Assembly (NCBI GenBank): GCA_051294375.1
Contig: CM119265.1
Span: 21,638,278-21,702,277 of the forward strand
Length of the DNA stretch: 64,000 nucleotides
Reading direction: 5' to 3'
Source of the DNA: Paraspadella gotoi
Lineage: Eukaryota > Animalia > Chaetognatha
In this document: one piece after another, positions 15,001 to 18,000 of the stretch
How the letters are laid out: every line of letters begins with the position of its first letter
Position numbering within the stretch: the stretch's first letter is position 1
Translations under genes and position numbers: made by a program
Notes under the pieces: model-generated
Database searches by the model: none
The model's input: only the letters and a program-made list of their open reading frames with translations
What the model was told of the DNA's origin: nothing

Positions 15001-18000
15001 AAGGGAAGAATCGGGGAAAATCGAACCTGATTGAGGTCTGGTCCTCCTTTCTGGGTAAGCAGAGCCTCCATTAAGTGGCAAAGCGTGATGATCTTAGAAA
15101 TGTCTACTTGAATGATCGCTTGAATACATTTTTTACTGGCGTACTTTAAGCCTTCGTCAACGTACTTCTCGTATAGAAAATAAATGTAGTCCCTAGTGAA
15201 GATTGGAGAACAAAGTTAACATGTTATTAATTCGTGAAAATCTTCTGCTTTAACTACTAATAAGGATAGTCTTTTTTTTGTTACCTAGTTTCCCTACGTA
15301 ATTTGTCTGAGAGAGTTTCGAGCCATGTTTTGACGTAAGGCATCCATTTCAATTGTCCCGGGTCAACGTAGACCATGCCACATCTGCTCACGGTCGCAGG
15401 TGAGGCCTGTGCCAAATCTTGCACCTGTTATCGAAAGACAAGCGTAGCGTGAAAGGCGCATATAGGAAAATAAGATCGGTTCATCCAATGTGTTGCGCCG
15501 CAGTGAGTTTATTTTCACATGACATGACTAAAAAAATTTCTCACCCCATATATCTATGATATGCAATGCAACGAAATTTCGTCTTTTATTCCTTATAGTT
15601 TTATAATTTCCTGAAGGCGGCGCTAGCAGTCCCTTATATTTGAGGTTTTTTCCTGTCTTAACAAATGAGTTTTGAGCAACCATCTATAGGCAAATTATAT
15701 GCGCTTTGAATGTAAGTGGGACACCCGACTGACAGATGAACGGACGGACCGACCGAAAAGTGACTTATAGAGTTGCTCCGCGAGTACTCGCGGCGCAACT
15801 AAAAACCTCCCGAAGAGATTGGACGCTGACCTCAAAAACCATATGAATAGTGTTGCTGAGTTTAATTCTCTCGCTGTTGGCGAGACACAACATTTTGTTG
15901 TCGTCGAGGACCGTGTTCATATTTTCGATCCAGAGAGCGTCGACGGGACCGTCGCAGATGATCCACTGGTGATCCATTGCCGTGTCCTGGAAGAGAACTA
16001 TCAGTAGTAATGAGAACTGTCGAAGTAAACCTTGATATTCAAAATACTAAAAAGAAAGATCGGAACAGAACAAAAATCATTTTATAAATTATAATTACGA
16101 GAGAATAGCCCATCTGCGAAAAAAGGAAAGGTGGAAAAAAGGTTAAAATAATGGCGACTAGTATTTCATTGGCACCAAAATATTCGAGTTGTAAAGATTG
16201 AAAGGGGGAATCTCCGAACCTGGACGCATCTCCTGACGGTCATAGCCATCAGGCCGTCGTTCCACTCTAAAGTCAGTTTGTTGACTTCTCCGTAAAGTTC
16301 GCCCATGGATATGGATTTAGGATTGAGGACGTACGTGTGAACAGGTCTGTGCGAGACGGTGAACAAAAAAATAATAATAATTTTAAACTGACTTTGTCAA
16401 AATAAATTCCATTCTCCGTAAACGCAGACGTACTTGAACTGAGGGTACTTCTCCCCCTGCAAGAACAGGTTAGTCAGCGTGTCCGATAGGATGTTGTATA
16501 CGGTGGTCTTTCCCCCGCCGGTGGGACCGACCAGCATGACTCCGTGTCGCACGATCATCGTTTCGTAGAGTTGGATTACTTTCTTGATGATCACGTCTTC
16601 TGGCTGCAACTTCCGATCCACCTGGGCCTGATAGATGGCGGCCTGCATGACGCCGTAGTCGTGCTCGGGTAGCACAACGCCGGGAAACAAGTCTTGGAGG
16701 ATGGCCTGATCGAAAAGAGGAAGTTTACAGAGTCTTGGTAAGTTTAAAGCAAAAAAAACCAAAATTTACCCTAAATAGCATGGCGTCCTGGGCGAGGAAC
16801 TTGGGTAAGTTCGAGTCCCTGAGGGCTCGAATAAGGACGTGATCCTCCACGATGGTCGGATTCTCTCGCTTCAAGGAACCCGCCATCACCAGCACGGACT
16901 TAACGGCGCGCATCCCAAAGTCGTAGTGATCCTGTAGAGTGATTATTAATATTAATACATTAATACATTAATATTGGTGGGGAGGCAAATTTAAAACTAG
17001 ATAAATAATTACAATAATAATAATACTAATAATTTTTTTTTACTTGTTGGGACAATTGCTCCGAACACAGCTTGTACATTTGCGTCATTTTTCTGGCCAA
17101 AATCTTCGAGTTTTCAAAACCCTCGGAATAAAGGATGACCTGAGAGGTGAAAAGTATTTTTCTTGAATAAAATTATCCTCCACGACAGAGAAGTCAAACA
17201 TTAGAGCAAGCGCCATTACCTCAGCGATGAGGCCATAGTCTGGCACCATCATAGACATGGGTCTGAAGAGGGCTTTGAGGTTGTCGGGCAACTCGGTTCT
17301 CCCGGCGTAACCGGGATTCATGGTAATGAATGATGCGCAAGTCGGGATCAACTTGATCTCGCGTCCCTCGAACATAAAGCGCGATAACTGGTGGGGGGGG
17401 CATAGTGGTTATTATTGTTGATGTCATAAATGGAGTCGGACATTATTAGAAAGGTGTCGCTAATGGAGGGGAAACTAATGGTTTTTTTACTTTTCGTTAA
17501 TTAATTGAGAATAAGATGCGGAGGAGAGTGAAAACTAAATATATTCTGATGTTGTTCTTAGGAAAATACTAGATAAGTAGATTTGGGATGAAAAAAATTA
17601 ATTATTTTATTATTTATTTTTAATTATTTAATTTCCAAAGCCAAGTCCCATTGAATCAAAGAAGGACAAATTCGATCCAAAGAAAGAACCAAAAATATCG
17701 AACGAAAACGATACGAAAATGAAAACCTTACGTGTGCTCTTTTGGCGCACTGAATGGTGATTAGCTGTTGCGCAATCACCGACAACACCTGCAACGTTGA
17801 AAAAAAAAAACGAAGGTCAAACCATCGTCACGAATCCCACCTTTTCGAGTTTGGCATTTCTGATGGTAAGGAGCTGCTGAGCGATGACTGACAGAACCTC
17901 AATGTCGATGCGGTTGAACTCGTCGAAACAGGACCAGGCGCCGGACTGCGCCAGGCCTGAGAAGAAACGGCCCATCATTTTGTAGTCGAGGCCCTGAGAG

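Follow-up and report, generated by a model that had tools for sequence, protein, structure and literature searches.

The motor of an axonemal dynein heavy chain of the DNAH6 type is probably made in two forms in the chaetognath Paraspadella gotoi, with the choice between them made at a donor site that lies inside an exon. The gene is on the minus strand of a stretch of 64,000 nucleotides (nt) of this genome (assembly GCA_051294375.1, contig CM119265.1, positions 21,638,278 to 21,702,277 of the forward strand), here called the window, and all coordinates below are positions in it. It contains two versions, A and B, of the segment predicted to form the helix that follows the Walker-B motif in the AAA1 module. 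Copy A is the tail of the Walker-B exon and copy B is a separate exon downstream. We observed a transcript in which a donor at the very start of copy A (D1) is joined to copy B, and the use of copy A in place of B in other transcripts is likely because copy A is conserved.

Copy B is found in a spliced transcript

Transcript data were taken from the only public run with this locus (X1), which consists of contigs and whose kind was guessed to be RNA, and were compared with positions 16900-18650. The first record of X1, of 5904 nt, matched seven exon pieces in a row, each with 0-2 differing letters (at least 99% identity to the window), and the six stretches that it skips are all GT..AG on the minus strand. 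Since introns have been removed at GT..AG, we infer that this record derives from spliced RNA of this organism. At the duplicated helix, the joint 17786>17896, equivalent to 17788>17898 when shifted by +2, removes 109 nt that begin with GTTCTG and end with TTGCAG. In addition, the joint 17387>17732 removes a 344-nt intron, and the joint 17992>18083 (cut shifted by +1) marks the upstream end of the Walker-B exon. The contig piece over copy B has no differing letter when compared with the window, and it is therefore B, and not A, that is present in the contig.

D1 (17897), the acceptor of copy B (17789) and the donor that follows it (D3, 17731) are used in RNA. Copy B is present in mRNA, with copy A and the spacer spliced out as a single intron. 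Both junctions that had been predicted for copy B from the DNA letters only (hereafter the sequence-only reading), 17898>17788 and 17732>17387, are present in this spliced contig. The same reading was to be given up if copy B was never found in mRNA; it was found there, and B is the form in the assembled transcript of this one run rather than a rare swap-in. Double inclusion of A and B is absent from the one X1 contig that crosses the site, and contigs drop minor forms. Copy A is covered by no X1 contig and, as contigs drop minor forms, this is uninformative on the existence of an A form.

Several other observations were made with the same run. Three further X1 contigs match the window only at 23-nt conserved motifs (FDEFNRI, MNPGYAG and others, at 17302-17324, 17905-17927, 17356-17378 and 18319-18342; listed joint depths 8.9 and 176) and then diverge; these are paralogous dynein heavy-chain transcripts. 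At 18518, where the spliced contig stops, a second contig has a loose end and a homology model based on one protein places an acceptor (19189>18518). This position is probably another exon boundary.

Two copies of equal length, one of them without an acceptor

Every coordinate proposed by the sequence-only reading was reproduced on the minus strand by reading 18400-17200 and extracting the pieces (Table 1). The two copies have the same length (57 nt), are both in phase 0, lie 52 nt apart, and share 34/57 bases and 13/19 residues. A six-frame scan of the 64 kilobases (kb) for VLSVIAQQ, with at most two mismatches allowed, returned copies A and B as the sole sites, and their resemblance is not due to chance. 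Within the helix, the differences include positions 13 and 14, which are R and N in copy A and Q and C in copy B. Copy B has its own acceptor (CAG/) and its own donor (/GTAAGG), where the slash marks the splice site. Copy A has a donor, but neither an acceptor nor an upstream intron. Classically, each copy of a duplicated pair is a complete exon with acceptor and donor; copy A is not such an exon.

Both copies appear to be under selection

Over codons 1-9, A and B differ by 8 synonymous and 0 nonsynonymous changes, that is, at every synonymous opportunity, and over all 19 codons the proportions of synonymous (pS) and nonsynonymous (pN) differences are 0.96 and 0.22, respectively. Codons for the same residue differ between the copies in 9/13 cases, and about nine differing codons are expected at full saturation (by our own arithmetic, made without a computed run). 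As the silent differences have reached the level of saturation, the duplication is old. In a simulation on codons 1-9, four random substitutions kept the peptide in 0.33% of 20,000 trials, and eight substitutions kept it in 0/20,000. The argument for selection from silent sites, first made in the sequence-only reading, holds when it is computed and is reinforced by the copies found in relatives.

Among the matches listed by a search with the exon that carries copy A, 117/120 other dynein proteins have a single copy. Copy A is the DNAH6 consensus of these 117 proteins at positions 1-16. No variation occurs at positions 1-8, 11, 12, 15, and 16, where all have the residue of A, while position 13 is R in 114/117 and position 14 is N in 115/117, as in A. 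The Q13 and C14 of copy B are found in 0/117 of these single-copy proteins.

The three best matches of this search were short metagenome contigs (P0001, P0002, and P0003) in which both copies are intact. Copy A has 18/19 of the residues of the window in these contigs and ends in ...LQK, and the peptide of copy B is identical to that of the window (19/19) in all three, as well as in a fourth contig, P0121. The spacers of P0001-P0003, of 20, 23, and 24 codons (60, 69, and 72 nt), are read through and can be aligned neither with each other nor with the 52 nt of the window, and in P0121 copy B lies behind an out-of-frame spacer. A Q before copy B and VRF after it are found in 5/5 sequences (the window and the four relatives), which fits a conserved CAG/ acceptor and a conserved /GTNAGG donor (GTNAGGTTY). 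Spacer length has thus changed at least three times beside two 57-nt blocks that show no length change and at most one replacement, which argues for selection on both copies at the protein level. Taken at the level of the peptides, purifying selection on both copies is well supported.

The open, in-frame spacers of all three two-copy relatives were considered as a meaningful feature and rejected: only proteins of at least 91 residues are listed, so only read-through open reading frames can be seen, and the spacer of P0121 is out of frame. The end of copy B, searched for as a degenerate DNA pattern, had 0 matches in metagenome, genome and viral contigs. Similarly, copy B was found in none of 5 candidates among proteins of 236-2000 residues, which is weak evidence.

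The duplicated segment is predicted to be the post-Walker-B helix of AAA1

A tblastn search with the fetched dynein proteins placed the gene on the minus strand, where it extends from about position 28 kb to beyond the start of the window, and the closest long protein (62% identity) is named DNAH6. Three consecutive exons of the window match Pfam AAA_6 (PF12774; E-values of 1.5e-23, 1.2e-23, and 1.9e-25), the family that Pfam describes as the hydrolytic ATP-binding site of the dynein motor. The P-loop exon covers profile positions 19-68, the exon carrying copy A covers 66-119, and the next exon covers 118-179; the P-loop GPAGTGKT and the Walker-B region CFDEFNRI are both readable in the exons. 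As the exon with copy A stops at profile position 119 and the next one begins at 118, exactly one helix copy gives a continuous profile. Moreover, the less conserved C-terminal exon at 663-1262 matched the solved DNAH6 chains 8j07_g5, 9fqr_Xz, and 9d2f_T with E-values of 1.7e-22 to 5.1e-21, compared with 2.3e-11 for DNAH1, the next paralogue. On these matches, the gene is assigned to the axonemal dynein heavy chains of the DNAH6 type, and the duplicated region to its AAA1 module.

An AlphaFold model was made for P0023, a homologue of 159 residues (24-row alignment). Its mean predicted local distance difference test score was 46, and only the secondary structure of residues 71-110, where the block means were 63-75, was used. 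There, a helix covers the 19-residue segment and is followed by strands over RFMF and REIKL. This supports, as a prediction, the identification of the duplicated segment as the post-Walker-B helix of AAA1, directly ahead of the hairpin. The AAA_6 matches, the matches to DNAH6 chains and the P0023 model together bear out the placement given in the sequence-only reading, namely a DNAH6-type gene with the duplication in the AAA1 helix between the Walker-B motif and the hairpin.

Splice-site strength and spacing

Donors were scored with a matrix built from 19 introns, each supported by agreement among at least four of the fetched dyneins; these introns are homology-guided predictions, some of them probably wrong (for example ACC/GTCGCT), and the scores are rough (Table 1). 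T at +3 occurs in 4/19 of the training donors, so donors that begin with GTT are not foreign to this gene. The predicted donors with T at +3 are CAG/GTTCCC, GAG/GTTCGC, CAG/GTTTGG, and CAG/GTTAAT (first intron bases 9951, 4940, 26137, and 11296, minus strand). Judged by these, a GTTCTG donor may be less unusual for this organism than the consensus rules imply. The homology gene models choose the junction 17840>17388, from the donor after copy A (D2), and hence include copy A.

The 19 homology-supported introns have lengths of 61-726 nt, and those confirmed by the contig have lengths of 80, 87, 90, 109, ~112, and 344 nt. None of them is as short as the 52-nt spacer, in which the sole candidate for a branch site of the form yUnAy is TTGAC; the distance from the branch A is 24 nt to D2 and ~81 nt to D1.

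These features suggest how the choice could be made. Copy B would be recognised as a strongly defined micro-exon, with a tract of 11 T, a CAG acceptor and a GTAAGG donor. In that case D2 would be too close to the branch site, the weak D1 would be left as the only partner, and the B form would result. If copy B was skipped, D2 would join the exon that begins at 17387 (acceptor at 17388), giving the copy-A form. Steric exclusivity caused by the short spacer is suggestive only. No match to Rfam was found in the window.

The second copy is rare and seems restricted to one lineage

An intact second copy was found in 0/80 metagenome dynein loci (80 kept from the 444 relatives found). Twelve DNAH6-type metagenome loci read through with V directly after NAKxxK, which points to the same intron position and makes the intron after the helix, and D2 with it, ancestral. 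In the 7/12 loci that reach the next exon (introns of about 124-1557 nt), no second copy was present in the whole intron after the helix. The sequence-only reading had proposed that both the intron position and the duplication be looked for in DNAH6 orthologues: the intron position is shared by the 12 loci, while an intact second copy is absent from the 80 loci and present in P0001-P0003. No break between IDIE and VLSV was seen among the listed proteins and loci, and since no listed homologue has one, copy A never had an acceptor of its own.

From these comparisons, the second copy appears to be a rare tandem duplication restricted to one lineage. In the simplest scenario, the last 57 nt of the ancestral exon would have been copied into the intron that follows the helix. 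In the Val codon that follows ...IDIE, the GT would then have been recruited as a donor, with the effect that B replaces A rather than being added to it.

Decayed copies were observed in other loci. In L030, a metagenome locus from another animal's DNAH6 orthologue, positions 1612-2050 of the intron after ...LITIRNAKAAK hold three decayed tandem copies of the exon tail, the donor and the intron start. They are 64-85% identical to their parent and have many replacements and one stop (LVFSLIA*); L028 (~2420-2560) is alike. As judged from these sequences, L030 represents an independent duplication of a like kind that was not kept; duplications of this sort recur, and copies that are not used show visible decay, which is not the case for A and B.

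Table 1. Features of the duplicated AAA1 helix and its splice sites in the window, with the scores of the three donors.
Feature	Positions	Strand	Remarks and evidence	Score (bits)	Training donors scoring lower
Constitutive part of the Walker-B exon, 32 residues	17898..17993	-	Phase 0 at both ends; sequence, contig piece 17896-17992, AAA_6
Donor D1, GAG/GTTCTG	17892..17900	-	GT is the first two bases of the opening Val codon of copy A; joint 17788>17898	3.91	2/19
Copy A, ancestral version of the helix, 57 nt / 19 residues	17841..17897	-	Contiguous with the upstream exon; spliced out in the observed transcript
Donor D2, AAG/GTGGGA, after copy A	17835..17843	-	Ancestral; use predicted for the copy-A form	5.41	4/19
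Spacer between A and B, 52 nt, with 11-T tract and acceptor ttgcag	17789..17840	-	Sequence
Copy B, derived version of the helix, stand-alone phase-0 exon of 57 nt / 19 residues	17732..17788	-	Contig piece 17732-17786
Donor D3, CAC/GTAAGG, strong, after copy B	17726..17734	-	Joint 17387>17732	8.15	17/19
Intron from copy B to the next exon, 344 nt	17388..17731	-	Joint 17387>17732, CT..AC on the plus strand
Next exon, 56 residues: beta-hairpin and sensor-I strand of AAA1	17220..17387	-	Contig piece 17218-17387; AAA_6 118-179

Neighbourhood of the gene

An open frame of 239 residues at 39789-40505 (minus strand), a neighbour of the dynein gene, matches the Pfam family FAM92, a BAR-domain family, with an E-value of 3.5e-53. 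Long microsatellites lie in and around the dynein gene (10910-11043, 20503-20713, 20872-20953, 33321-33400, and 4504-4600), with units that include (AGAA)n, (TC)n in ~108 copies, (AAGAGA)n, (GA)n, and (TTCT)n.

Alternative explanations for the two copies

The proposal of a switch between two forms combines the splicing of D1 to copy B, seen in a contig, with a mutually exclusive use of copy A that is suggested by the silent-site divergence, by the pan-metazoan DNAH6 sequence of A and by relatives that keep the copies. If both forms are made, the two resulting motors would be distinguished by the final two turns of the helix and by the linker that connects it to the hairpin.

Several points weigh against this proposal. 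A is missing from the sole contig that spans the site, and minor forms escape notice in contigs; there is one run only, its record makes no statement of RNA, and its origin from RNA is deduced from the removed introns. Selection on A was judged from the peptides of relatives and from the dissimilarity of the spacers, not from the ratio of nonsynonymous to synonymous substitution rates (dN/dS). D1 is weak by the matrix and yet it is used, so something that is not modelled must promote it. The steric argument is soft, as the gene has introns as short as 61 and 64 nt, in which the donor is separated from the branch candidate by 42 and 30 nt, respectively, and the 60-72 nt spacers of the relatives are within the spliceable range. 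Moreover, 57 is divisible by 3, so that double inclusion or double skipping would escape frame-dependent decay. Finally, the predicted fold of the pre-mRNA over 17930-17700 is no stabler than that of shuffled sequences (z 0.11), and hence gives no sign of competing RNA structures.

The alternative that fares best is that B has permanently replaced A, with D1 constitutive and A either a relic in an intron or kept for a role in splicing. It would agree with the transcript evidence, all of which is for the B form with A uncovered, and with the finding that no A-form protein of this clade occurs among proteins of 91-2000 residues. We nevertheless consider it unlikely, although it deserves to be kept in mind. 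Copy A is intact, in frame and equal to the pan-metazoan consensus over 16 codons despite silent sites that are saturated between A and B, and a neutral segment of 57 nt would not have stayed open and unchanged while the adjoining spacers (52, 60, 69, and 72 nt) diverged past alignment. Indeed, the unused copies of L030 and L028 show a stop and many replacements. A role as a splicing signal would constrain a few bases, but not 19 codons at the level of the protein.

Alternatively, the counterpart of the B form could be a form with both copies, made by splicing D2 to the acceptor of B, so that the helix would be repeated in frame by 19 residues. An insertion of 57 nt would preserve the frame, and with 60-72 nt the spacers of the relatives match the shortest real introns of the gene (61-64 nt) in length, so that removal of the spacer may be feasible. 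This is nonetheless improbable. The contig that has B is without A, the spacer of the window is shorter than every intron examined, and the AAA_6 profile and all 117 other proteins accommodate only one copy; to judge from the predicted layout, a second helix between the Walker-B motif and the hairpin would likely break the fold of AAA1. There is hardly any probability left for an artefact, with the contig derived from a paralogue, a retrocopy or a misassembly and B an unused pseudo-exon: the record of run X1 gives its kind only as a guess and three other contigs touching the locus through 23-nt motifs are paralogous dyneins, but record 1 follows seven exon pieces in a row, with 0-2 differing letters in each, breaking exactly at GT..AG, and four independent contigs preserve the B peptide together with the splice-site residues on either side of it.

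Starting from the two-form switch, a more specific proposal can be put forward tentatively. The gene would encode an inner-arm dynein with an RN/QC switch in the helix, operated by the donor in the Val codon; the 52-nt spacer would force the choice sterically, and the two forms would have different kinetics and serve different cilia or flagella (for example, those of sperm and epithelia).

Comparison with known systems

Steric interference between splice sites has its classic case in exons 2 and 3 of alpha-tropomyosin. The arrangement found here is like such pairs in that 52 nt separate D2 from the acceptor of B, and 24 nt separate it from the sole branch-like motif. It is unlike the clear steric cases in that the margin is small, given that introns of 61-64 nt are spliced in this gene and that the relatives have spacers of 60-72 nt. 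Hatje et al. 2017 (PMC5740500) reported 57 human clusters (9%) in which donor and branch point are separated by less than 50 bp.

A mutually exclusive exon pair has been described in SmDHC1, a cytoplasmic dynein heavy chain of Schistosoma mansoni (Pillmann et al. 2011, PMC3228551), and substitutions of tandem-duplicated exons are known in human genes (PMC8373072). As in SmDHC1, adjacent homologous segments of equal length and the same phase encode one structural element of a dynein heavy chain and both are kept intact by selection. The pairs in SmDHC1 and in human genes are complete exons with their own acceptor and donor, whereas the first copy here forms the end of a larger exon, so that a donor within that exon is required for the replacement. 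SmDHC1 is also cytoplasmic, while the gene in the window is of the axonemal, inner-arm DNAH6 type, with the duplicated element in the catalytic AAA1 module, and the use of copy A alone is here predicted.

The locus also resembles an alternative choice of 5' splice site, with one exon that has two in-frame donors at a distance of 57 nt, of which the upstream is used in RNA and the downstream is ancestral. In an ordinary case of this kind the use of the upstream donor would produce a deletion; here it is coupled to a cassette that restores a homologous 57 nt, and the outcome is a substitution. The system works like a substitution by tandem duplication without being a textbook member of that class. 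In the literature searched, of which coverage was partial and supplements were excluded, we found no description of a duplicated AAA1 helix in an axonemal dynein, nor of a duplicated segment that is selected by means of an exon-internal donor.

Implications for dynein diversity

The locus exposes a blind spot in annotation, as homology models take copy A and the observed RNA takes copy B. Programs that search for exon pairs and require two stand-alone exons would miss such an architecture. If the more specific proposal is true, it would reveal a route to mutually exclusive splicing that does not need an intron before the first copy. A partial duplication of an exon into the next intron can become a substitution because the codon pair GAG/GTN is already a minimal donor.

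Diversity among dynein heavy chains usually comes from duplicated genes, of which the axonemal paralogues number about a dozen, rather than from splicing. If the more specific proposal holds, this gene would provide the first case of an axonemal dynein whose catalytic AAA1 site is switched between isoforms. Two nearly invariant positions of DNAH6 (R in 114/117 and N in 115/117 proteins) would be altered by the switch. AAA1 is the site of the power stroke, and a switch located there would be a natural experiment on how the post-Walker-B helix tunes the motor.

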